Below are positions 3,259 through 32,889 of a DNA stretch of 35,472 nucleotides, piece after piece. The notes beneath the pieces are model-generated. The model was not told the DNA's origin and made no database searches. It saw only the letters and a program-made list of their open reading frames with translations. Location of the stretch: contig JYFJ02004024.1 of assembly GCA_000934665.2 (NCBI GenBank), positions 1 through 35,472 on the forward strand. Reading direction: 5' to 3'. This DNA is from Catajapyx aquilonaris. Taxonomy: Eukaryota. The position numbers and the translations under genes were made by a program. Each line of letters opens with the position of its first letter. Position 1 is the first letter of the stretch.

Positions 3259-5354
3259 CCTGAAACTCTGTGCCATCATCTGGATAGCCACCCACAGCTC
3301 CCTGGATCACTGAAGGTGTTAAATCCAGTCTGGCCACATCATCAGAATGCTTCTTGAACCAATTCTGGACCTGCTGATGAAACTGCACTAGCCTGCTGGA
3401 ATTTCCCATCGTGATAAAGCAGTGCCATGAGCTGTGTTCACCCTGCCTCACGACAACACCTGGCCATTTGTTTAAACAGTTCCATGTTGCTATCCCGTGA
3501 CTTTTGGCACTTGAGTGTATATAGGGTCTTGCATAACAATGGATTGCACATGTTAATGGTTTCACCTGATTTGATTTAGCATTTTTGTTGCTTTCAGATT
3601 TCTTTCCCCTGCAGGAAGAGCAGCAGTGATTTTGCAGCACCATTGTCGCCAGAGGAGGATGCCCATAACGAGATATTCCTGCTGGTCAGTATCACGAGAA
3701 ATCAAGGTCTCAATGCAGTTGCATGGATTTGAGTTTGCTCCTGTGCAATGTTGACTAGTGAGAAGTATTACCTGACAGCAATAAAATGACATTATTCTGA
3801 ATGTATCTGCTTTCTCTGGGAAAATGGGGGGGGAACCTTTTGTGCTGAGCTCCAAGTCTTTGCCTTTACAGCAGACTGAGCAGATTTCCACTTAATCAGT
3901 TCTTCTGCAGGAGTCTTAAAAATCTGCAACTTGACCCTTATCAGCTTTGGCATATCTCGTTGGACAAGGATGAGACAGTGTAAATTAAGCTGTTTTTTTT
4001 GGCGTTACGTATGGATGGGAAATAAGCCAATATCAGGGTACTAGACTAATTCTGCGCAAAAAGTTATGATTTTAATTTCCATGTAATTGCATTGCCCTTT
4101 TTCTGATTATTTATGTTTTTGAATTGACATTTTTAATTGTTTGTTCTCTTTTCAGTGCAAGTAATTCGCAGCCTGCTGAGATGGTGCCATCCTGCAAGAA
4201 ATGATCATCCATATTTTCGCCTGCTTTCTCCTGTTTCCAGTAATTTGCAGCCCAGATGGTGCCAGTCAGGAGCACCATACCGCCTTTAACCCCCTACAAA
4301 CCTCCCCTTTTTTGGCATCATGTGCTAACACTTCTTGGCACATGATGTTGAAGAGAGGAAGATTTACCGCCTGCATTTAGGCTCCTCCCCCTTCGACGTC
4401 ATGTGCCAAGTGCATGACGTCAAGGGAGGAGGGGAAACTTGCAGGCTGAAAAATCGTAGTTTTAGTCGTCGGAAAAAAAAGACCGGGGTCGTCTGGGCGT
4501 AATTTCGGGCGGCCCCGGCCACCCCTGCATTCGCAAAGTCCGCTGGCGCGGAGCCTAGCTTAATGACCCCTCCCCTTTTTTCTGTAAACTTTTTTCAGAG
4601 TCCACTGATTGTCTCTCATTCGTTCACTCCAGTGCCTTGGCCCATCCCCCCTCTGCCTGCTGATGGTAGGGGTGAGTGAGGCTTGGATGGATGTGGGTGC
4701 ACGTACTGGGCAATGTAAGTTATGTTTCCCTCCTGCCCCTATCCTCCCAGGGCAANCCCCCCCCCCCCCCCCATCGTCCAAAGCCCCTCTCCCTGGCCAT
4801 CAGTAGGCGGAGGGAGGAGAGGCAACGATGCACTGTTTCTTTATTTCTTACAGCCGATATACATTGTACAAAAATCGCAATAAAGATGTTGACAATAATA
4901 GTTCTGACTGCTGCTTTTTTTTCCAGGATGTTCAAGTAACTTGTATGTTAGGCTGCTTGATCCTTTCCAGGCTGTGTGCAATAAAGGTGTGCACAATAAT
5001 AGTTACTCTTCTGATTGCTACTCCATCTTTTACAGGATGCCCAACAATCTAAAAAGGATAACAATGATTAAAAGACTTATAATATTTTAGGAGGATGAAT
5101 TAAGAGCTATTAAAATTTCATCCAATGAATTTTACTGGAAATACAGAAGGCTACACATGTAACTTATTATTGACATTAAAAACTCCAGCATTTTTGCCAC
5201 ATCCTGCACTTGCCATAAACAATTTCAACATAATAACTTCTGCAGGGGGAATAAAAAGCAATGGATCCAGGTATGACTACGATTGAATTAGGAGCAATGG
5301 CCTATGATTACTGAAAAACACATTGGATGTGTCAGCCACCTTCATATAGTTACT

Positions 5355-6660
5355 TTTTAATTGCCATTAAGGGAGCAACGAAGAAAAGGGGCAAGTCGAA
5401 AGGGGGGATAGTGGTGGAGCTGAACATTGAAAAAAAGGAAGTGGAAGATGCAGATGGGTGGGGGAAGGAACTAGAAACGATGAGGACAGAAGATGAGGGG
5501 AATGATGTGTGTGTGGGGACTTTAATGGTAGAATTGGACATGAGGGCACCATTGGAGAAATGGAAGGAACAGAGAAGATCTGAGGACGCCACATCAACAG
5601 AGAGGTTGCTAGATAACTGGGCAATGTGGGGTATGGTGGTAGCTAATGGGAGGACAAAGGGGAAGGTAACCTATATTGGTGCGACGGGGAAATCGGTAAT
5701 AGATTATGTAGTGACTGACAAAGATGCATGAGCTGAAATAATAGACATGACGGTAGGGACGAGAATTGAGTTGGATCACCAGCCATTGGAGGTGACCCAC
5801 AATCGGGTGGGGGGGAAGACACACAAAAGGGAAGTACAGCGGCCGAAGGAGGAAGGGGGTGAGGTGTAAGTGGGCCGAGGCATACAGGACACGGCTAAGA
5901 GAAAATAGCAAGAAGAGAAGGGTGGATTGGTTTGACGAGGAATGTAAGGAAAAAAGAGGAAGTATGGAAGAGGTTCAGGGCTTTTAAAAGAACGGGGACT
6001 GAGGAAGACACAGTAGAATATGTTGCTCAAAGGAAAGATTACCACAAATTATGTGAGGAGAAGAAGGGCAGGAACTCAAATAATGGAAAGTTAAGTGAGA
6101 ACGGAAGGTGAAATGTGGGAAAGACTCAGGGGGAAAATCAAGGACAGGTCCATCACGGAAGAGGAAAGGACAGAGCATTTTGTGGGGGTGCTGGGAGGGG
6201 AGTTGGAAAAAACGATGGTAGAAATCCCGGGAGGCAGAGGGGAACAGGTGGCAGGAAGGTGGGATGCTGACATAACTGAGAAGGAGATAACAGACTGCAT
6301 GAGGAGACTGAAAAAGAGGAAAGCACCAGGGATGGATGGGCATCCAAATGAGATTTTGAATAATGGAGGGGAAGTGGTGGTTAAAGAAATCAAGGACGGA
6401 GCTGTTCCTGAAAATTTGGGAAAGTGAGAGAATACCATATGTATGGAAAGAAGCATGGTTGTGGCCCATCCACAAAAGTGGGGAGAGAGGAATGGCGTAA
6501 GGGAAGAAGTACCATGGACAATACATTTATACTGAACTCATTGGTGCAGCATAGACTCAGTAAGAGGAGGGGGAAACTTTATGCACTATTCGTCAACCCC
6601 ACTCAAGGCAGCGTTTGACTCCGTGGACAGGGTTAAGCTCATGGAGAAACTGTGGATTTT
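5355..6660 (+). mobile_element. Degenerate non-LTR retrotransposon fragment (APE endonuclease C-terminal half plus N-terminal RT), with stops, frameshifts and deletions
   Basis: Endonuclease motifs NGRTKG..TYIG..GKSVIDYVV...DHQPL. RT-region motifs ITEKEI...LKKRKAPGMDGHPNEIL, WKEAWLWPIHK, RKGRSTMDNTFILNSLV, LYALFV/KAAFDSVDR. Confidence 0.9.
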
Positions 6661-8854
6661 CATGGTAATGATTTCTTTGGCATAATAATTTTCAAAAGGC
6701 AAAAGGAAAATAATTTTCAAACAAGGTACTGTAATTATCAGGCACAGTGAATACAATATATTCATTGCAGCATAAAAATTTAGCATCAAGAGACATTTTT
6801 CCATGATTATTATGACCAACACTGTTACAAGGTAAGTACAAGTGTGTAATACTTACCATGTCCATGTCTGGTCTGCCAGGATAGTAGATGGCAAGTGAAG
6901 GGTTGAGGCATATCTGATGATGACAGCACCTCGCATCGCTTGATTCCACAAGTTGATTAGGATGAGGCCAAAGTGGTTGCTGGTTTGGCAGAAACAGGCA
7001 GGTGATGTCCAGAGACCAATCAGATGCATCGTCATTCTGTAAGGTGTAATGAGTACAGGTCACACGACTGTCATTGAGAGTGCTACGTACTAATACTAAG
7101 TTGCATTGCCACACAATCAAGTATTTTGTCTCAGAAATTTTGAATGACATTAGTAGACTACAATTTCCACCAAGATATGCTAGCAATATGATAGGCGGCA
7201 GGTTCACACCATTGCGATTGTGACGATTTCAAAGTGAATGTAGAGCACATGAACAAAGCACATCAAACAGTACCATAATAAATTATTGGTGATTAGCATG
7301 GTGCCTATCTATGGAGAGACGCGGAAAGGCAAGTACGGTACATAGGATGGTAGGATTAACACAGGCACATTAACACATGCACATTTCAAATCCTGATAAT
7401 TATTCGCAACTCAAGAAGCAGATTGGAGGAATACGCATCATCTTAATAACATCACTTGTACGCAGTGTAAATGATTTTTGAGCAAAGTCGAAATCATTAA
7501 AATTATTTTGCACCCACATTTTACTTGCATACTTGGCTATTCAATTATTCTGAGTGTGGAGCATCCTACTGTGAGTTTATTGTTTAACAATAATTATTAC
7601 GGCTCAAGACATAAACTCACCATCAATATTAATTGCAGTTACATCCAAGGTCGTTGAGCATCAGCATGACGACATCTGTTCTTGTCCAGGGTTCCTTTGG
7701 TGACCAATCTGACTGTCGTGCTGGCAGTTCACTAGTCTGGTGTCCAAGGTGGTGTGTGTATCCAGCAGCATACCACAAACCAATTCTACATAATAAATAA
7801 AGCATATTAGAAACCTGTGACTTAATTTGCCCCAATTTGACTGGGCTCAGTGGTATACATCATATGACCAATTAGCAGGCTCTTAATGTACTTTATGAAC
7901 TTCAGAAATGTTGCTCTAAGTCCTATTTATTACATACACATACCTATCGGTTGATGTGCAGTTGCTGTGAAGGTCTTATTGTCACACGTCCCCAGGCAGG
8001 CTACCAGCACATCACTCTCCTCCTTTCCAGGTCACGAAATGGTTGCCATTGTGGTGCAATCACTCACCCACCAACCCCCTCAGGACATCATGTGGACGAC
8101 TTATGGCCCAATGGTGCCAACAAAAGTGGGTGGTTTGACCTTGAATAAATTCGAAAGGACCTTCACCAGTTGACTGCAAAAAAAACAACAACAACACATT
8201 ATCCTGGAAGTCAAGCTTCCTACATCGCAACCTAGTTTGAAGGGTTGCCCTGAAGGATGACTATTACTCACCGATGAATAAATTAATCTCAAATTAATTA
8301 CAACTGAAGTACAACTTGCTTCTTTTAGTCCTTCCAAAACAACGAAATGATGAAAATAATGTAGGTCGAGCTTATCTTCTTTGTACTTATCCTAAGAAAG
8401 GTAAAGCCACCCCTTGTGTAAATCAAGTACCGGTAGTACTAGGTTTTGCCAGGTAATAGTCTCTGACAATCAAGAATATGGGTTCAAGGGCTGGTACCTA
8501 CATGCACTAGAAGATATCGAGTGGGACTGCCTATGCAATGAAACATACATGAACACATGAATTTAATACAATTTAACTGAAGCAGTCTGTGTTTACCTTT
8601 TAAACTTTGTAAGTTTAAGTAACAACAATTAATATCCATCAAAATAACCCATTAAAATCCGCGATATTAAAATGTGCTATTGATACTTTAGTAGTATTAC
8701 AAAAAGCATATTTTATTTTTTATTACATAAAATGTTTACATAAACACGGCCAGAAATGACCCAACTGCACTAGTTGAAGTATGCCCTACCGCAGCATCAA
8801 CATTTTCAGATCAGCAACTTTGCAGGAAGCTTCAATTTAAATCGCAATATTTAT

Positions 8855-10991
8855 CTACAGTGTAAAATATATCGCAATGATGAATAAACTGAGATATAAG
8901 CAATGAATGGAAGATGCAGAACTTTTTGAAGGAAAGCTGCTAAAATTGATGGCATAATTATTATTGTTATCTATTGATTTTGCTATCCCAATTCGGTTCA
9001 ACCTCATGTCAAAGGTGCAGTAATATGCCCCAATAAATACGTCACCAAGGATCCACTCTGGTCCATCACTGTACTCGGATGGTGTGAAGCCAGACACACA
9101 CTCGCCTCTATCCTCATACTGAAAAAGACAACGTCAAATTAACCGCAGGCTTGTTGCATTCCTTTCAACGGCAAGGTTAGAAATAAATAACTTACCTTCA
9201 GTACATAATCCTTGCTTGTAAGAGTAAAAGCGTAGCTGCCAAACACAAAAACTATTGGCGGAAGTGAATCAACAATCCTGCAGTCCACCTGAAAATATCA
9301 CATCATGTATACAAATTCTGGTAACTATTGCAGTTGAATCCGGATATAACAGACTTCAAGGGAGAGCGAAAATCAGTCTGCCGAGGCTGTTATATCTGGA
9401 TTCAACTGTACCGGTATATAAACTTCCGCAGCATATTGCATGATATGTGTCTGTTATATCTTCAGAATATTGTACCTTGAGCCACTTTTCTATTGCACTA
9501 CAAGTTTTGCGACGTAATGAAAAAACTCACTTCATGGAAAGCCCATGTTCACACTTAATACACACCATGTGCAAGCCTGTGTTGGGATCTTCTTTTGCAT
9601 TAAGCAGATGGTTTAGCCTCTCTACATCTTCACTTGGCCCAATGATAAGACTGGTTCCTGTATCGATTATAACTTCACATCCACTCCTGCATGAAAATTC
9701 TTCACCGTTGAACACTAGTCGGTCCATATGAACCTGCCAGTAACCCTGCCTGGTGACAGGAAGGTAGGCAAATTCACCAGTGTAGTAATTGGGATCTGTT
9801 CCTCCCAAAATCAGTTGCCCACCAGGAGATCCATACAAGTTTCTACGGAGCCAAAGCGTGAAGAATTATTTCATGGTTAGGAGATACATGCCATGGGCGG
9901 CAGTCAAAGCCAATCAGCCAATGCAAAGGTTCACCACACCTGTTGAGATAAAACGAGAAAATGGGTTCATCCACAGCATTCTGTTGCATCATGGCAAGGA
10001 AAACTGGTAGCACTCCACTTTTAGACAGGGACGGATATCCCATTCCCAAGATGCCGTCAAAATATGTGTTCCTGAAGGAATTTCCTCCGGTGAAGTTTAT
10101 CTCGGCAAAGGTTTGTTGGGAAACTGTAATGCCTGCAACCTGAAATTGTACAATTCACTCGTTATTGCATAAAGTGCGTAACTTTATTTAAACCCAATAC
10201 TTACACTAATGTCATCCGTGGATAGAAATCCACTGGCAGGTCCTGAAATATAATTAATGCTAAATCTATGTCCATTGGCTCTATATGAACTGGATTTGGC
10301 TCCATCATAAAGTCGATGAGATGCTGAAATTTCCCAGAAAATAGTAGAAATATGGTAAAAACATGCTTTGCTTTGATGTCACCGGAATGAAAGAAACTCA
10401 CAGCAGCTGTAGTCGCTCTGAAGGCATTTTGAAGAATACACCCATGTGTCTGATGATCCAGTGTCAAAAATCACATTAAACTCTTGAGGAGGATTGCCAA
10501 TTTTTATGGGACCAACATACTGGGCCTGCAATTATAAAGCCAACTGTGTGCAAGTTCCTGACAAATGGTGCTTGCCACTTACGTTTCCATAATTCTTGAG
10601 AGGGTTAACCACCGCACCTCCCACATAGATGTAGTCATGCCTCTTCAATGGAATACCTTCCTCGTGAGCAATCTGTGCTTCTGATTTGATCTTCGTTAGT
10701 GGAATCCTGTTTTAAAATGTTTACCAGTAAGAGTTTTCGGTTTTGAGGCAATAATTTGATGACATACAGTGTTGGAACATTAATCGACTCGTACTGCTAG
10801 TGACATTTTCTGAAGCGGCAGAAGAACGAATCTTGCTTGCACGGCTTGCACTATCCATATCTTCGATTCGTTCTTCTGCCGCTTCAGAAAATGTCGCTAG
10901 CAGTTTGACTCGATTAATGTCCAACACTATACCTGACTAATCCAGTGGCAAATGCAATGAGGCAGAGAAGCAGCACAAGCACATGTGACAT
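8855..10991 (-). CDS. Gene A: cathepsin D-like A1 aspartic protease with predicted GPI-anchor tail, 8 exons, 419 aa
   Basis: Exons (minus strand): 10933-10991, 10583-10706, 10402-10525, 10205-10323, 9940-10139, 9566-9842, 9196-9288, 8855-9118. All GT-AG, phases compatible, 1260 nt. Signal peptide [69 protein letters not shown] at 8712-8724. Confidence 0.93.
9331..9408. mobile_element. Short palindromic Tc1/mariner-pogo-type MITE in gene A intron 6; related copies at about 31041-31110 and 32023-32108
   Basis: TIRs cagttgaatccggatataacag / ctgttatatctggattcaactg(ta). The same gatataacagacttcaagg core recurs at 32023-32108 and, inverted, near 31041-31110. Confidence 0.75.
10767..10929. mobile_element. 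Palindromic MITE with TA target duplication in gene A intron 1
   Basis: ta|cagtgttggaacattaatcga...gacattttctgaagcggcagaagaacgaatc / gattcgttcttctgccgcttcagaaaatgtc...tcgattaatgtccaacacta|ta. Second family member at 28074-28223. Confidence 0.88.
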
Positions 10992-11849: not shown

Positions 11850-12410
11850 TTATTTGGCATCAGCAAGACGAGCAATACCAACCTGGTTGTTTGCGAAGTC
11901 AAAGATGGAGTAGCATCTTCCAATGAAGGCATCTCCAAGGATCCACAGAGGGCCCATTGGTGGTGGAATATCGATTCCCGTGAATCCAGACAGACAAATG
12001 GTGCATCCAATGGCACTCAGCTTCAGAGCATAGTCGGTGGGGCCAATGGAGACATCCTTATCTCCGAGGGAAAAGGTGACATTGGGCATTGTCGGCAGGT
12101 TGTCACAGTTGATGTACCACTTGGGTCTGACGATGTGGGTGGCACCCATGGCCTTGTTGATGGCTTTGACTTTGGCAGTTGGGCCAGCGATGACACTGGT
12201 GCCAGTGTCTACGATCATGGCACAGCCTTACTGGCAGCCAATTGCACTATCGCCAACCTGTGTGAAGAAAGGCATAAAATTACAAATGTGCATCAGGCAT
12301 TACTTTAAAAGCATAACATTCAGCAAAGGAATAACAAAAGTTTCCAAAGCCAAAGTTCAAAAACATTTATAGCCTTACATTTTTTAGCAACTAAATTATA
12401 GAGAAATTCA
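11850..12410 (-). pseudogene. Orphan duplicate of the cathepsin D terminal exon (11850-12257) plus about 150 bp of preceding intron, with an in-frame stop
   Basis: Aligns with 13884-14430 including the intron and acceptor (cacacag|gttggcgat). Reads [20 protein letters not shown]...[19 protein letters not shown] at 12228-12230 replaces GAA. No upstream exons found between 12410 and 13880. Confidence 0.88.
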
Positions 12411-13883: not shown

Positions 13884-15636
<1,753 letters not shown>

Positions 15637-16822: not shown

Positions 16823-18615
16823 CTTTCACCATACTATGTCTCCAATTTCTGGAATTCCTATCAGCCTTAAAGATATTGAGATGAAAGGGGACTATTTTTG
16901 GTTGGCAAGAAGATGGTGGGCTAAGTTTAGTTCACGGTTCAGTCCAGTTTTAAAATGTCGGGGAAGAGGAAGGCGTGGACAAAGGACCCCCTCCCCTGGT
17001 ATGACGCTTAAAAATTTCATTTTTCTTCTGTGTTCTCGCCTTTGTTTTGTTTGATTTGATTTAAAATATATATATATATATATTCTATCTTGCAGCCGCC
17101 CCTAGGCAATTCCCTGCTCTGCCTAATCGTAAATCTGTCGCTGGCTAATCAGGAGTCATTATGAAATATCCTAGAAAAGATAACACTGTAATACAGTAAG
17201 ATTTCATATCTTATTAGATGCGGAAAAGTCTTTTTATCTGACATTAATTCCAGTGACCTATATTTATAAGCAATGTTTCACCGGTTTGTAAAGATGAGTA
17301 AGATCAATACGTGCTGCCATGTAATGGTCCTCCTGATCACAAAACAGTGCCGATTCCTTAAGATATTTTGCACACAGGTGTTTGCATAGCTTCAAGAATT
17401 AAGTCGCATTAAAAATTAAACAGCAGAACCCTGCCTGTAACAGCAAATATTAACAAAGCTGACTGATCATGCAAATCCTAGATGTCCTCTTCTACTTAAG
17501 ACACAATTCATCAAACTATCCTGGTAAATATTACTTGCTTGCTGTAATCCTCATCATTAGAATTTGCCCTTTATATTTTCCCCTCTCCAGTGAAAATGTG
17601 CATATTTGACCATATGTGATGAAGAGAATTGTATTGTGGGAAGCTTTCCCTCTCTTGTTACTTGATTTGTGAATGATCACTTTCTAGAAGTTGTCTTCAT
17701 CATGCAAAGCCCTCTTGATGTGAACATATTCCGCATGTTCATCCATCATGAGCAGGGAAGTGATCAACACCCCTCAATTATTCCATTTGAAATATGGAAT
17801 GCTCAATAATCGATTTCATTTCCATATTTCAAGTTTACTAGATCATCAGCTGAGAAAATACTGGACTATGCTGATGCAAGGCTGAGAGAGAAGCACTGAT
17901 TTACACATCTGCAAAAACTGACAGCAAGGCCCCTTGTGTTTGCAATACTTCCTTGTAGGTTACTGCCATCCTTCTAATGTGATGCAATTAAAATATAATG
18001 TGACAATACTGTAGTACAAAGGGTAACGTGTTATGTAACATAGCAACTGCATCAAGTACCATTGACTAGTTACAATCTTTCACTTCGGCAAGTGATATCA
18101 GGTAGGTCTATAGTGAAAAACGAAGTATGGATATCACATTCCTGATTCATCTTCATCCAACTACTATAAAAGCTATCTTCCTTGTTGCTTCCCCTACAAA
18201 GTTCCTTCATGGTCATGAATTTGGGTGATATAAGCCATTGTGCTGCAATGCACAACTAATGTATCTGCAACTGGGACCATGCCTGAATGCCAAAAATTAG
18301 GTCAAGGTCAAGAATATAATTAATAAATAATAATTGGCTGGCTCGTGATAGGCCCGCTGGAGCCTTTTAGGGGATCATCTGTTATTTACCTGACTTTAGT
18401 CATTGTCTGCTCTATGATGGTGTTTGTATTAGTTAACATTGCCATTTCCTGACAATGGTTCTAACCAGTTAATTTGAATTTATTTTCTTCATACAGATAG
18501 TGAAACCGATCATATTCATCTTCCTGACAGCTGATAACATTTGTGAATGATGCTAAATCTCATAATCCATGCACACAGTAAGAACATGTACAGCCTTACA
18601 TAACTTGACAAGTTT

Positions 18616-18777
18616 CCGCATTTGATGGCATACAAGACACACGGGCATGTAAGACGGACCCCCCATTCTAACCGCAGATCATATTCTGGAAAAAAAGCCT
18701 TTATTGTATTTTCGCATGTAATTTTTTAGCCATCTTTTGGGGAAAAAAGTGAGTCATATATGCCATCAAATACAGTA
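18616..18777. mobile_element. Degenerate pogo/Tigger-like MITE just downstream of gene C
   Basis: Terminal inverted match ccgcatttgatggcata / tatgccatcaaatacagta. Confidence 0.6.
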
Positions 18778-18890
18778 ATTGCCTAAACCCGTTTAACAAA
18801 TCCTCTCTTTTATAACGTACAGTACTTATACATATGTTAGTAATGATGAAATAGGTGTTAGGTAATATCTTTTATTAGTATTGGTGCTTA

Positions 18891-21039
18891 TCACTTGGCC
18901 TCAGCCAACCCAACCTGTGCATTTCCATAGTCAAATACAGTGTAGAACTTTCTGATAAAGGCATCACCCAACCTCCACATTGGGTTTGTATCGTCACACA
19001 TAAATATAGGTGTGCATGTATTAAATATCCCACCAGATTGCTGCAAAAACAAAATGCTTTAGTAACTGATCAATTATTTTAAAAGCATACAGTACATACC
19101 GAAATGTAATCATTTCCCTGCATAACAATGGCATGCTCGCCAAAGTGAAAGTCCAGCTTCGGTAGGTCAGGGATGCGGCTGCAGTCCACAGTCCACTTGC
19201 CAGTGAGAATATTCTGTGTTGCTCCTATTTTGTGATAAATGGACGTAATATCGTCTTTGTGCCCAGATACATAGGCATAGCTTGTCTGAAACGTGGCGTT
19301 GCAGCCATTCGTGCATGCAGCAGGATTTCCACCCACCATGACGCTAACATAGGTGAGAAAAATCTTTAAGTACAAAATGTAGTACATGTAATGTACGTGA
19401 CAAGACCCAAGACCAAAATTATCCTTCCTTTTCTTACGCCATCAATTAAAAGTTCTTCTATTGTACATGAATAATGATGAAATTGAATATTTCAGTACCT
19501 GCTTAGTTCAACTTGCCACTTTGCCTTCTTGTTCACGGGTATGTAGGTAATGTTGCCGTTGTAATGGTTGGCATCAGCTCCACCCAAAGTCAATACGCCA
19601 CCTGGTGCTTTTTTCGGGTCCCTGACAAAGCAAGCATAGATATCAAAATAATGCATAAACTGTGTAATTCTTAAGAGTGTCAAGATTAAGAAAGGCATCT
19701 GAAATAGCGCCTTACATATCAAAAAATTCAACCAATATGCAATGAAGAATGTAAATTTTCCAACGAAAAATAAAACAAAATTCAATGAAAGAGAATGTGA
19801 CAGAGACGTTGATAAGGCAGGCTTCTTGTCTCAATATTGGCACTGCATTGCAATAACATTTGTAAACATTTCTATTATGCAGACTTACTTGCTCATATAG
19901 AAGGCAAATACAGGCTTGTCAATCAATTTGTCGGCAATCATTTGACTGAAGATGGTGGGGAGCCCAGAAGCTGAAGCTTCGTTAAATGCCATTCCTACAA
20001 CGGCATCACACTTAAATGATCCAAATGGTGTCATTGGCGTAGTTGTCATCTCTGCGAAAGTGTACTTCTTTGTTGCCACGTTAGAAATCTGTACAAAGAG
20101 GAAAAGAAGTGTCAATCAATTCAGGACATGCCTTTGAAAGACAGAAGAGAGGTTTAAATATTACAAACAAGGCAGATCTCGATTCTATTTCAAGAAACGA
20201 TATGTATAAACCATTAGTTGGTGCATTATTATGCTGTAAACACAATTAAATAATGTACCCTTTTGGTAAATGTATGCAAATAAATAATGAGGAATGCTGA
20301 ATTCATAGACTCACTGTGATGTCATCAGTGGAAAGGAATCCTGCCACATGGCCTCCAAGTAAGTCGACATCATAGTTGGTACCATTCACTTTGTAGGTAG
20401 ATGATTTACTGTTGTCATACCGAGCATGTGCTCCTAAAAATTATTGAAATAAAATTATTGCTTGCATTGCACAATTATAGCCCTAACACTTACTGCAAGG
20501 ATAAGCCAAAATGCCACACTTCTCGGAGTAGACAACAGTATCCGCAAACCCTGTGTGAAAAAAGGCCTGGAATATCTGTCCAGGAGTCCCAATGCTAATA
20601 GGTCCATAATATTGCAACTGTAATTAACACGCGAATCAGGAACAGTGTTCATGAATAGTGACCCTAGCAGTGACTTACGTTATCATAATCCGTAAGGGTC
20701 TCATCCGCTGGACCTGTTTTCAGCTTACCCAGGGGAATCCTAGAATGAAACATTAAAATCAACAATATTGTAAGCACACAAAAACCCTATCAACCAATTA
20801 AGTCTGAAAATGAGGTCATTCACTACAACAGCAGGTCGTAACGCAATAAGTGAAGGTTACGTAAGTTTCTAAATGCAAACCTTGTTTTCTAAATCAATAC
20901 TTATAGATTCATTCAAAAAAAAAATGACAGTAGTAAAAAACTTCTAATAAAATCTAACACAAATTAATGAAAATTTCACTCACTCCAACAGAGCGTTGCA
21001 TGTGGCTATTGCCACCAGGAAGAGTGCGACAGACTTCAT
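18891..21039 (-). CDS. Gene C: cathepsin D-like pseudoprotease (both catalytic Asp replaced), 8 exons, 358 aa
   Basis: Exons: 20984-21039, 20679-20739, 20494-20617, 20315-20433, 19889-20088, 19499-19621, 19100-19343, 18891-19040. All GT-AG, 1077 nt, no stops. Signal peptide [89 protein letters not shown] at 18871-18876. Confidence 0.92.
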
Positions 21040-21083
21040 TATTAGTGTGGTGGTGACACTCACAGAAAAAGTTTTCGGGGGCC

Positions 21084-21101
21084 CTATATATGAGCAGATA
21101 G
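21084..21101 (-). promoter_or_regulatory. Probable TATA box of gene C with adjacent GATA motif
   Basis: Minus-strand TATATAG at 21084-21090, about 50 bp upstream of the ATG at 21039. AGATAG at 21096-21101. Confidence 0.55.
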
Positions 21102-21473
21102 GAAGTAATCAAACGCTCTTGAACATGTACTCGAAGTTACGCAACCAAGAACGAAGGTAAGAGTTAAACTGCGTATCTGTGGTGACCTCAAGTCCAAAAT
21201 AGTTATCTAATCAAGAAGAAAACACTTACTCTCCCGCTAAGTGTGTGTGCCAGACAGCAAGACAAGAAAAGGGTACGATATTTTCATCAAGTGCAGTTAT
21301 GAACAATGCTCTAATGCTTTGAAAGACAAAATGGCGTTCAAATTTTGGTCCTTGGACTGATCCACAAGGATATGGAAGTTTGGGTTGCGGCTGATGAAAG
21401 CCAATAATTTTCCAGCTGTGGATGTGGGCTTGAGAGCCAAATAATTTAAACATGTGAAATGCAATATTGTATC

Positions 21474-22543: not shown

Positions 22544-22782
22544 TATAACTCGAGGCAGCATTTCCTTGAATCATCTGTAATATTGTGAGCCACACAATGT
22601 TAAAGGTATTGCACAATCTATATCAAATATAAAGTTAAGCAAAAATAGACTCCCCAACACTTCATCTGTTGTTGCATCAATGTATGATTATAAAGATGAA
22701 GTGCTAAATGATTGCAGAGAATATTTTTGCTGCAGTCAGCAAAATGATAAGGACAGATGCGTTAATTGTTTTGTGGATTACA

Positions 22783-23498
22783 AAAGCAAACCCCCTTACC
22801 ATCCAGCCGGAAACGGTTTGGTTGAAAGATTTAACAAAACGTTGGTCGACATACTTAGTCTTTATGTCGACAACAACCAGCTCAATTGGGACAGAAACCT
22901 TCCTCTAGTTCTAATGGCGTACAGGGGTGCCATTCAGGAGTCAACAGGGGAGACTCCTTTCTTCCTAAACCATGGTCGAAACATTGTCTTCCCGTTTGAC
23001 GACATAATAAAACGTTATCTCCAGTCCCCTGGTAACAACTTCACTGAAAATCTTGTGAAAACTCTCCAAAATTCGTACCATGTTGTAAAAGACAGGATTC
23101 ACAAAGCTTTTCTACGACAGAAAAAATCACATGATCGTGGGTTTCGTCCAAAACACTTACGTCAAGGCGATATGGTACTAATTCACAAGCCCCAGTACAA
23201 AAAAGGACTCAGTCGAAAATTCCATCAGACTTGGCATGGTCCTTACAGAATCTTGAACCGTAAAAGCCCTGTTATTTTTGAACTTCAAAAACCAGGCCAG
23301 ATCGGTTCGTTCACGATTCACAGAGATCGACTTAGAAAATATTTTCCCTCAACTCCTTTTCCTACAATGGACATTCCATGTGTGGACACTCAAACTACAT
23401 CACAAACATTCTCAAAGCCAGTCCATACCAATGCCTCCTCCTACAATCTTCGTCCAAACCCATACCCCGCAGGGTTTTACAGTCAGTTTTTCAAATAA
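22783..23498 (+). CDS. Gypsy integrase fragment (catalytic Glu region and GPY/F module)
   Basis: Part of ORF 22680-23498. Recognisable homology starts at about SKPPYHP; the zinc finger and first two DDE aspartates are missing. Confidence 0.88.
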
Positions 23499-25439: not shown

Positions 25440-26975
25440 CCAACATCAGCCACCAATCCCTGGCCCGGACACAATTCTGGCCGAGTGGCCATGGATGCGG
25501 AGATTTGTGGGCACCAATGGAAAGAATCCAAAGTACCATGAGTCAGCCCCCATCTCCCATTCCCGCTGCCAGGCCTCCATTTGCGAGTCGAATGCCCGTT
25601 TTCCCATGTAGTGTGACGATATGGGCAGGAAGCGGCAACCCACGGTGAGCTGAGCCACCTTCTTTGCTTCCTGATCAGCCAGCTCGTTCCCGAGCGTACC
25701 TTGGTGTGCCTTAACCCAGTGGAGGTTGACGCCCTGGTTAGCTCCTTTCATCAGCCTACTTGCGTATTGAGCCGATCCGTTGGTGGAGATTGCGTTTACC
25801 ACCGTTTGAAGAGCTAACTTGGTGTCAGGAAGGGGCGGAGAGCGGCCAGCAGGTGTCTTCTGACCGCCTTCACCTGCGTTAGGTGGCCCCAAACTTTGGC
25901 CCCATATAGCAGCACTGCTGATGCCAATATGCGGAGTCTGCTTCTAGGCGCCAACCCCCAGCGCTGCCCTGCCACCCTCCACAGCCGGGATGATATGCTG
26001 CGTACCTTCGCAGCCGTCTTCTTGATGTGGGTGAACCAGAAGAGTTTGGCGTCAATGTGTAATCCGAGAACTCTCATGGAGTGGTTCAGTTCTATACGCT
26101 CCCTGCGGAAGAAGAGCCTCGGTTTCTTTTTCTCCTTGCAGTGAGGCAGGAAGAGACTCTCCGTCTTCGCCTCGTTATACGCAAGTCCCAATGCAGATGA
26201 CCACCCCAGCTTTAGCCAAGCGTCCTGGATGGTGTCAGCATCGTGTTGGAAATCAGTAGGACCTGATCGTCTGCATAAGCCTGGACATGCACCCTGTCCA
26301 GACCCGCATCCCTCATGGTCTGGAACCATCCATCCATGACCAGGATCCACAACATGGGTCACAAACTAGATCCCTGCGGGCAGCCCCTCTCCATGGTATA
26401 CAATCCCCAATCGCAAATGAGGTCAGGCGGGCCAAGGAATCCCTCCACCATGCGGATCAGTCCCCCAAGACATCGTGCCTGTAGTAGCGCCGCCATAATT
26501 TTTCTATGTGGGAGACTGTTAAATGCGTTTTTTATATCAAGAGTGATAATCAATCCATACAGTGCCTGGCAAATTATCGGGTCCCGGGGCCTTGTCAACA
26601 TACATGTTCAACACAGTTTCCTGAAGTTCTCCATCGGTGAAAGGAAGGTCCAAATGATCATCATGGAGATCCGTGCGAGGGCGTGTGTTCCATGAACCGT
26701 CATTCCTCGGGAAGTAACGGTCTATCGTAGCAGCTCCAATGTCGACCAGTGTGATGGCTGGGCCGTTGTTTCCCTCAATTCTGCGACTGAACTTCCCTCG
26801 TAGAATCTGGTATCGGAGCGGGGGGAGAGGGGAGCCAAGTGGGTCCGGAGTTTGGTTCGGAGCTTGCCAGCATGGTCTGGCGTTTGGTTCAGACCAATGC
26901 CTCCATAGTTGAACCCGGATCCAGAGGGAGGTTCGGAGCGGTTCAGAGTTTGGATATGTCCAACATACCAACACA
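25440..26975 (-). mobile_element. Degenerate R1-clade-like non-LTR retrotransposon (RT plus RNase H), internally deleted
   Basis: KAPGPDNL, ITLDIKNAFNSL, RGCPQGSSL, AYADD, MRVLGLHIDAKL.WFTHI, WGL...LLYGAKVW, and RNase H VNLHWVKAHQGTLGNELADQEAK, across several frames. Confidence 0.9.
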
Positions 26976-32200: not shown

Positions 32201-32889
32201 GACTGGCTGTATATGCTTTCAATTAATAATAATTGCTCTGAGCTTGCTTTTTTGCACACCCTGAAAAGCAGTAAGTGGCCATTTTCTGCAAAATTTCATG
32301 TGAAGACAACGTTCAAGTACATCTCAAACTTAGCCAAACTTTTCGCACAAAACCTAATATGAACTCCGACTGGCAAAAAGTAATTAAGTCAAGGTATTAC
32401 TCATTACTGGGAGAAGATTCAATGAGCCACTTGGTTGAACAACACTGGGTACAATATCGCCACTGCAGAAAGCTATTAGCATTATTATTGAATTGTATCA
32501 CGTGATAATGACCTTATTCAGGTGTAAAACGGTAGGGAGAGAATAAAGACTGACCTGAGTTTCCGTTTTCTGCCCCTTTAGCCTTCTCCTCCTCCTCGAC
32601 AGCTGCGTTACCATTCTCCTTGGGCTTCTCCTCTTCCGCCGTTTCCTCTTTCTTCTCGGTCTGCTTGGCGTCTCCAGCACCCTTCTCCTCCTCCTCCTTC
32701 TTTGCCTTCTCCTCTACCTTCTCTTCCTTCTTGGCATCTCCCGCTCCCTTCTCCTTCTTCTCTTCCTCCTCCTTCTTATTGCTCTTCTCCTCCACCTTCT
32801 CCTCTACCTTCTTTGCCTCCTCGGCCTCCTCAACCTTCTTCTCCACAACCTCCTTCTTTGGAGACTCCTCCACTACCTCCTTGGTTTCC
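29266..32889 (-). CDS. Df31: Df31 (decondensation factor 31)-like acidic, intrinsically disordered chromatin protein; last two coding exons, 5' exon(s) not found in window
   Basis: Exons 32555-32889 and 29266-29441 join in phase 1 (ENGNS-E-VSVAED). E/K/A-rich with ENG motifs. The C-terminus LKRKSD...APTPEKKAKLDEK...ANGAAAEATA resembles, from memory, Drosophila Df31 VKRKVDE...ATPEKKAKLDE...QNGAEASEVAA. Confidence 0.82.
29632..30159. mobile_element. Tc1/mariner-type MITE, about 230-bp TIRs, TA TSD, inside the Df31-like intron
   Basis: ta|cagggtgtaaatgaattcagccgacaaacttgtaggggtaatagaggg... / ...ccctctattacccctacaagtttgtcggctgaattcatttacaccctg|ta. Confidence 0.93.
30290..30500 (-). mobile_element. 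tRNA-derived SINE with V/Meta-SINE-like central domain
   Basis: Minus-strand head ggtgtagtgcttaa...gagttctaacccc (A and B boxes), central gtgggttttctctggcttctcctgtttcctcccac, tail ...cgacgaaccaaccaa. Confidence 0.8.

Follow-up and report, generated by a model that had tools for sequence, protein, structure and literature searches.

Does a cathepsin D-like gene that has lost both catalytic aspartates still encode a protein that is kept, or is it a relic in decay? This question was raised by a locus of Catajapyx aquilonaris (GenBank assembly GCA_000934665.2), in which a stretch of 35,472 nucleotides (contig JYFJ02004024.1, analysed over its full length and hereafter called the window) carries an eight-exon gene, here gene A, on its minus strand at 18891-21039. 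Our study suggests that gene A is probably a maintained and transcribed gene for a non-catalytic protein of peptidase family A1, the pepsin/cathepsin D family.

Splicing by coordinates produced a frame of 1077 nt, encoding 358 amino acids (aa) and ending in a single terminal TGA, with GT..AG borders at 7/7 introns. This reproduced the eight-exon gene with a clean frame that a preliminary description had proposed, and its H-T-G-F, Q-T-S-Y, L-L-G-G and D-T-V-V motifs, TATA-like box and polyadenylation signal were all found in place. The exons and the candidate flanking signals, the latter two being sequence readings, are given below; X5 is a sequencing run of another sample and study, one contig of which covers part of the gene.

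Exon 1: 21039-20984, minus strand, 56 nt; ATG and signal-peptide-like N-terminus, followed by a GT donor; its junction lies outside the X5 contig.
Exon 2: 20739-20679, minus strand, 61 nt; shortened propeptide.
Exon 3: 20617-20494, minus strand, 124 nt; H-T-G-F (CAC at 20557-20555) and Val at the Trp39 equivalent; covered by X5 from 20601 with 0 differences.
Exon 4: 20433-20315, minus strand, 119 nt; N-G-T sequon, and L-L-G-G in the flap where canonical proteins have Y-G-S-G.
Exon 5: 20088-19889, minus strand, 200 nt; additional Cys147 (Phe in the paralogues) and a G-to-A change in the D-G-I-L-G motif.
Exon 6: 19621-19499, minus strand, 123 nt.
Exon 7: 19343-19100, minus strand, 244 nt; Q-T-S-Y-A-Y (CAG at 19288-19286), immediately preceded by an N-A-T sequon; 0 differences in X5.
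Exon 8: 19040-18891, minus strand, 150 nt including the TGA; additional Cys324, Ile changed to Arg332, and a C-terminal ending like that of paralogue B; covered by X5 down to 18981, with 1 other letter.
TATA-like hexamer TATATA: 21090-21085, minus strand, 46 nt 5' of the ATG.
AATAAA: 18876-18871, minus strand, 15 nt 3' of the stop codon and outside the spliced contig.

All 6/6 exon translations that were tested (exons 3-8) matched the Pfam family Asp (PF00026) collinearly, with E values from 2.5e-4 to 2.9e-10 (1.1e-6 for exon 3) and, in exon order, at positions 1-35, 42-79, 80-145, 147-183, 187-265 and 274-315 of the 315 in the profile. The predicted protein marks gene A as a member of family A1 by descent, and its N-terminus (M-K, about ten hydrophobic residues and small residues) looks like a signal peptide.

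Support for the gene model came from X5, whose share of the sampled words (0.34) was about that of the exons alone. Within the region 18600-21300, record 12 of this run was a single 855-letter contig that aligned in six pieces (20601-20493, 20432-20315, 20088-19888, 19620-19499, 19343-19100 and 19040-18981), five of them identical to the window and the last with one other letter. The joins between these pieces (19040/19100, 19343/19499, 19620/19888, 20088/20315 and 20432/20493) correspond to predicted introns 3-7, that is, five of the seven, and both motif codons lie inside the contig with the same letters. X1 and X4, from a set of four DNA runs of one sample, covered the whole stretch unspliced, with no joints and 0 differences. 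X5 is most simply read as a transcriptome in which gene A is spliced as modelled. Contig depth in X5 was 521.8, compared to 3.6 for the sole other X5 contig on the stretch, although depth cannot rank expression here. Just 3' of gene A, within 18731-18780, a stretch of about 45 nt was matched by several other DNA-run contigs, which are 90-95% identical to it and have loose ends on either side; the stretch looks like a short dispersed repeat.

Gene A was found, by tblastn of its spliced protein against the window, to be the first of a same-strand cluster with two paralogues (B and D) and a fragment (C), which are described further below. Residue conservation was assessed with 28 non-redundant canonical A1 proteins obtained from our searches, in which 94 columns were at least 85% conserved. 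In this alignment H-T-G-F (from residue 60), Q-T-S-Y (from 247), L-L-G-G (from 105) and D-T-V-V (from 65) of gene A occupy the D-T-G-S, D-T-G-T, Y-G-S-G and N-L-W-V columns, respectively. Neither aspartate of the paired D-T/S-G motifs is present, as the His60 column is Asp in 28/31 and the Gln247 column is Asp in 31/31 comparison proteins. Supporting residues have been replaced as well, with Leu105 and Leu106 in the flap and Phe63, Val67, Ser249 and Tyr250 elsewhere. In pepsin numbering, the replacements from canonical residue to gene A residue are as follows.

First segment: Asp32 to His, Ser35 to Phe, Ser36 to Ala and Trp39 to Val.
Flap: Tyr75 to Leu and Gly76 to Leu.
Second segment: Asp215 to Gln, Gly217 to Ser, Thr218 to Tyr and Ser219 to Ala.
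Second segment, continued: Leu220 to Tyr and Pro224 to His.
Other positions: Gly119 to Ala, Tyr189 to Lys and Ile300 to Arg.

Gene A keeps 66 of the 94 conserved columns, compared to 87 in B and 83 in D, and its losses are concentrated around the active site: 15/24 columns were lost in the three catalytic segments (residues 57-70, 105-108 and 244-256) as against 13/70 elsewhere (Fisher odds ratio 7.3, p = 1.5e-4). The alignment also confirmed that the cysteines of the three usual disulfides and the N-G-T sequon are retained, as had been described at the outset; the six cysteines occupy columns C73/C80, C238/C242 and C282/C318 (the bonds being predicted) and the sequon is at N97. Gly34, the B-like C-terminal ending and the blocks G-G...G-G-x-D, W-x-L-G-D and Y-T-x-F-D are kept in addition. 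Two cysteines are new, namely Cys147 (Phe in 23/31 comparison proteins) and Cys324 (Gly in 26/31), which would give the mature protein eight cysteines if Cys14 is removed with the signal peptide. The calculated isoelectric point past the signal peptide is 5.9 for A, 4.9 for B and 5.2 for D.

The propeptide has changed together with the active site. In A1 zymogens a Lys-Tyr segment of the propeptide contacts the catalytic aspartates and blocks the active site. Exon 2 measures 61 nt in gene A but 121 and 124 nt in B and D, respectively, an in-frame shortening of 60-63 nt, and what is missing corresponds in the alignment to the stretch with K-Y in the other propeptides; the propeptide of about 40 residues with a Lys-Tyr segment that is typical of A1 zymogens is therefore not found in gene A. 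The active site and its propeptide plug have gone together, in a coherent co-loss. A1 catalysis requires both Asp carboxylates, and because both of these, the supporting residues, the flap tyrosine and the active-site-plugging part of the propeptide have gone, no A1 proteolysis is to be expected of the gene A protein.

The other members of the cluster provide the local comparison against which gene A can be judged.

Paralogue B: 13884-15636, minus strand; 6 exons, 383 aa; both D-T-G motifs present, Y-G-S-G in the flap and propeptide complete; canonical cathepsin D-like.
Fragment C: 11868-12260, minus strand; the last exon of B only, plus some 45 nt of upstream intron; contains an in-frame TAA and an insertion of 9 nt.
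Paralogue D: 8855-10991, minus strand; 8 exons, 419 aa; both D-T-G motifs and a Y-I-S-G flap; an extension of about 40 aa and a hydrophobic C-terminus.

Paralogue B is 58% identical to the best database cathepsin D, and its last exon is about as close to the cathepsin D of insects and molluscs as to that of vertebrates (57-65% identity). Fragment C, identical to B at 393/447 aligned nt (88%, that is, 12% diverged), is a young partial-duplication pseudogene lying between B and D. Gene A shares 36-39% aa identity with the paralogues. The gene structure is well conserved in comparison, as A and D have the same lengths for exons 3, 4 and 5 (124, 119 and 200 nt, of which B shares 124 and 119), and introns 1-5 have the same alignment positions and phases in A and D. 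A single clade of A, B and D was not rejected (the constrained tree was 6.4 log-likelihood units above a quick free search, with a p value of 0.625 in the approximately unbiased test, p-AU), and the best tree placed A and D as sisters with weak support (19). Synonymous sites are saturated among the three genes (proportion of synonymous differences, pS, 0.73-0.77), which indicates that the duplications are old; owing to the same saturation, the pairwise ratio of nonsynonymous to synonymous divergence (dN/dS) was dropped as a test of the gene A branch. At 8855-8990 on the minus strand, paralogue D runs about 40 residues beyond the usual A1 C-terminus and closes with a Ser-rich stretch and then a hydrophobic tail. 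Such an ending resembles a glycosylphosphatidylinositol-anchor or membrane signal, although an unrecognised intron could also explain the extension.

The explanation that competes best with a maintained gene is a transcribed pseudogene, that is, a functionless duplicate whose frame has stayed open by luck and whose promoter has survived. Such a history would be in keeping with the loss of both aspartates and of many supporting residues, with a terminal branch that is long for this family (2.23, three times the median of 0.7, which is also the value for B), with the failure of our searches to find an orthologue and with a cluster that has yielded pseudogenes, as fragment C demonstrates. However, the 358 codons contain no stop and 14/14 splice dinucleotides are intact despite the low identity to the paralogues, the exon lengths equal those of the paralogues, and 57/70 conserved columns are kept outside the catalytic segments. 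Fragment C, in contrast, has already acquired both a stop and an indel at just 12% nt divergence. A neutral point-substitution model was applied to the codons of gene A itself, in which 2.6-3.8% of mutations create stops. Under this model the chance of an open frame falls to 5% beyond 0.07-0.11 substitutions per site, by which time only 15-20% of residues have changed, and an open frame combined with at least 15/24 changed catalytic-segment residues reached a joint probability of 2e-6 to 2e-5 at best. Indels and splice sites are left out of the model, and their inclusion would lower the probability. A purely neutral history of gene A therefore fits poorly. Furthermore, pairwise dN along the path from A to B is 0.62, far under the saturated dS (at least 2.7). 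Taken together, the pattern of change appears to fit a protein kept for its fold rather than for catalysis, with remodelled catalytic segments alongside retained fold residues, disulfides and exon lengths.

Several points weigh against a maintained, transcribed gene. No record identifies X5 as RNA. Of the seven junctions of the gene model, five are joined in the X5 contig and junctions 1 and 2 lie outside it, as do exons 1-2, the 3' end and the untranslated regions. The catalytic segments used for the enrichment test were picked after the alignment had been viewed, and 2/15 of the changes within them (Thr66 and Tyr69) are common to the active paralogue D and may predate inactivation. The bound on dN/dS between A and B averages both branches, with dS saturated, and the long terminal branch of gene A also fits relaxed constraint. 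Constraint on gene A since the loss of the aspartates is something that we infer, no orthologue having been found in our searches. The earlier proposal of a selected protein, as opposed to a pseudogene, is supported in part, namely by the intact frame, the splicing at five of the seven junctions, the remodelling focused on the catalytic segments and the retained fold. Weighing both sides, we consider it likely that gene A is a maintained, transcribed gene for a non-catalytic A1 protein, and unlikely that it is a transcribed pseudogene.

A further possibility is that the protein is still a protease, working by an unconventional mechanism based on His32 of the kind proposed for the histo-aspartic protease (HAP) of Plasmodium. 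In HAP, too, a histidine replaces the first aspartate, and gene A does retain the fold and Gly34. However, the second aspartate is glutamine in gene A, which leaves no acid at either catalytic position, and the equivalents of Gly217, Thr218, Ser219, Ser35, Trp39, Tyr75 and Gly76 have been replaced, mostly by bulky hydrophobic residues. The glycine and threonine beside the second aspartate normally hold the substrate backbone; these are Ser and Tyr in gene A. With the activation segment of the propeptide gone as well, we regard a histidine-based protease as very improbable. An assembly or sequencing error, or a wrong gene model, that merely mimics the loss of the aspartates has next to no probability, because, even though the agreeing DNA runs are possibly the window's own source, the independent X5 contig has the same letters at both motif codons (with no GAC, which upholds the original His and Gln codons against a read error) and at the predicted junctions, and the substitutions are numerous and spread over three separate exons.

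The maintained, non-catalytic protein was next set against other A1 homologues. No orthologue of gene A was obtained from a word-index search of exon 7 against longer proteins (0/9 candidates scored), from an exhaustive HMMER search with exon 7 (117 hits, with a best true identity of about 42% and none orthologous) or from two scans of metagenomes, in which exon 7 gave 305 pattern matches and exon 5 gave 264, none of them confirmed. The top HMMER hit, P0002, was rejected as a relative, being a spurious match to a repeat protein. The database protein most similar to gene A overall was P0134, at 42-43% identity. A1 proteins with a disabled catalytic pair are nevertheless a common sight in the databases. 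Among 116 exon-7 hits, the residue equivalent to Gln247 was Asp in 100, unaligned in 5 and another residue in 11, although 2/11 of these are probably spurious long repeat proteins. Full-length alignment showed that P0075 lacks both aspartates and that P0059, P0093 and P0118 lack the second only. Six public A1 homologues in all were noted to be without the second catalytic Asp (P0059, P0075, P0093, P0104, P0107 and P0118, with P0075 lacking both), and several of them have an aromatic residue 2-3 positions past the site of the second aspartate, as does gene A.

Common descent of gene A with other inactive A1 proteins was not indicated. In a 38-row tree, whose set contained no named Bla g 2, pregnancy-associated glycoprotein (PAG) or RmPAP sequences, the five rows without a full catalytic pair required five changes (shuffled mean 4.8), and gene A was 28-36% identical to the other four; on both counts, the catalytic losses are therefore taken to be independent. 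When exon 7 was compared with solved structures, 35 PDB sequences were matched, the nearest being cathepsin D, renin, chymosin and pepsin, and no chain named Bla g 2 was among them. As an intact, spliced gene for an A1 fold with a disabled catalytic centre, gene A appears to belong to the known functional class of A1 pseudoproteases, which is not a clade, and to have joined it by an independent origin.

How might such a protein act? Gene A would have originated by an old tandem duplication in a local cluster of cathepsin D-like genes, and its product would have no aspartic protease action and no need of zymogen activation. Entry into the secretory pathway is most likely, given the signal-like N-terminus and the sequons, and the protein would be secreted or sent to a vesicle lumen, where it most likely acts by binding. 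With these replacements the cleft would have turned hydrophobic and basic instead of acidic (His in place of Asp32, Phe in place of Ser35, a Leu-Leu flap, Gln-Thr-Ser-Tyr where Asp-Thr-Gly-Thr is canonical, Lys for Tyr189 and Arg for Ile300). Since the residues that hydrogen-bond to peptides have been replaced and the cleft has gained His, Lys and Arg, a non-peptide or protein-surface ligand seems likelier than peptide binding of the PAG kind. A more specific proposal, which is conceivable if rather unlikely, is that the former cleft has been rebuilt as a new ligand site. Positive charge would then come from His60, Lys221 and Arg332, and hydrophobic bulk from Phe63, Leu105, Leu106, Tyr250 and Tyr252, whilst Cys147 in the wall of the N-lobe and Cys324 in that of the C-lobe might be bridged by a fourth disulfide, clamping the lobes across the non-prime side. 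A cleft rebuilt in this way could make the protein a carrier or trap, secreted in abundance, for an anionic hydrophobic ligand (haem, a fatty acid, a phospholipid or a sulfated molecule) or, alternatively, a decoy for the targets of the active neighbours. The protein would be a permanently 'zymogen-like' A1 protein that retains the first strand of the propeptide.

Beyond the cluster, a scan of the 94 other open reading frames (ORFs) in the window turned up nothing but retroelement debris. Three degraded Ty3/gypsy-type pieces lie upstream of gene A.

Integrase-like ORF: 22581-23498, plus strand; best relatives at most 39% identical.
RNase H match: 25446-25943, minus strand.
Reverse transcriptase match: 26359-26607, minus strand.

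Elsewhere, positions 5001-7000 are strongly asymmetric between the strands (GC skew about 0.35, AT skew about 0.23) and contain several long ORFs in both orientations, with no Pfam match. Imperfect CT-rich tandem repeats with periods of 27-66 are found at 32625-32854, together with overlapping open frames on both strands, and may be a low-complexity coding repeat. The window contains a single N at 4756.

Dead enzymes kept as binding proteins have repeatedly given rise to new functions, and most of the A1 examples still lack an assigned one. At this locus the remodelled but intact copy has both an active paralogue and a decaying fragment for neighbours, which allows the steps from protease to non-enzyme to be compared directly, namely the loss of both aspartates, of the flap tyrosine and of the activation segment, and the shift in cleft chemistry. 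A ligand for gene A, if found, would provide a functional assignment in a class mostly without one, rather than a new category, as A1 homologues without catalytic aspartates are an already known class. Gene A is a somewhat more complete case than most of those described, as both aspartates have been lost, the activation segment has been deleted with them, and the charge and hydrophobicity of the cleft have changed.

Comparison with known systems places gene A closest in structure to canonical cathepsin D, as represented by paralogue B and the PDB entries, with which it shares the fold, disulfides, N-G-T sequon and intron positions, but from which it differs in the loss of the catalytic apparatus and activation segment. 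The ruminant PAGs are likewise an expanded tandem A1 family of secreted glycoproteins, many of them described as inactive. PAGs are, as far as known, confined to the mammalian placenta and generally keep a peptide-binding cleft, whereas the cleft residues of gene A have been replaced wholesale. HAP shares with gene A a histidine at the position of the first aspartate, but it keeps the second Asp and is active; with Gln247 where HAP has Asp, gene A is not of the histo-aspartic type. The cockroach protein Bla g 2 reportedly keeps both aspartates, in altered D-S-T and D-T-S motifs and with an inserted flap residue, whereas gene A has neither aspartate. Bla g 2, Per a 2 and Lma-p54 are described as cockroach aspartic proteases that are inactive and whose function is unknown or presumed to be binding (PMC9541408), and gene A resembles these secreted proteins as an invertebrate A1-fold protein that is inactive and, most likely, secreted. 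The tick Rhipicephalus microplus provides a further parallel in its pseudo-aspartic peptidase RmPAP, which is reported to lack the second aspartate, to show no proteolysis and to bind haemoglobin non-proteolytically (PMC6345952). As described there, RmPAP is, like gene A, a cathepsin D-like protein that lacks a catalytic aspartate, but it has lost the second aspartate only, whereas gene A has lost both, along with the flap tyrosine and part of the propeptide.

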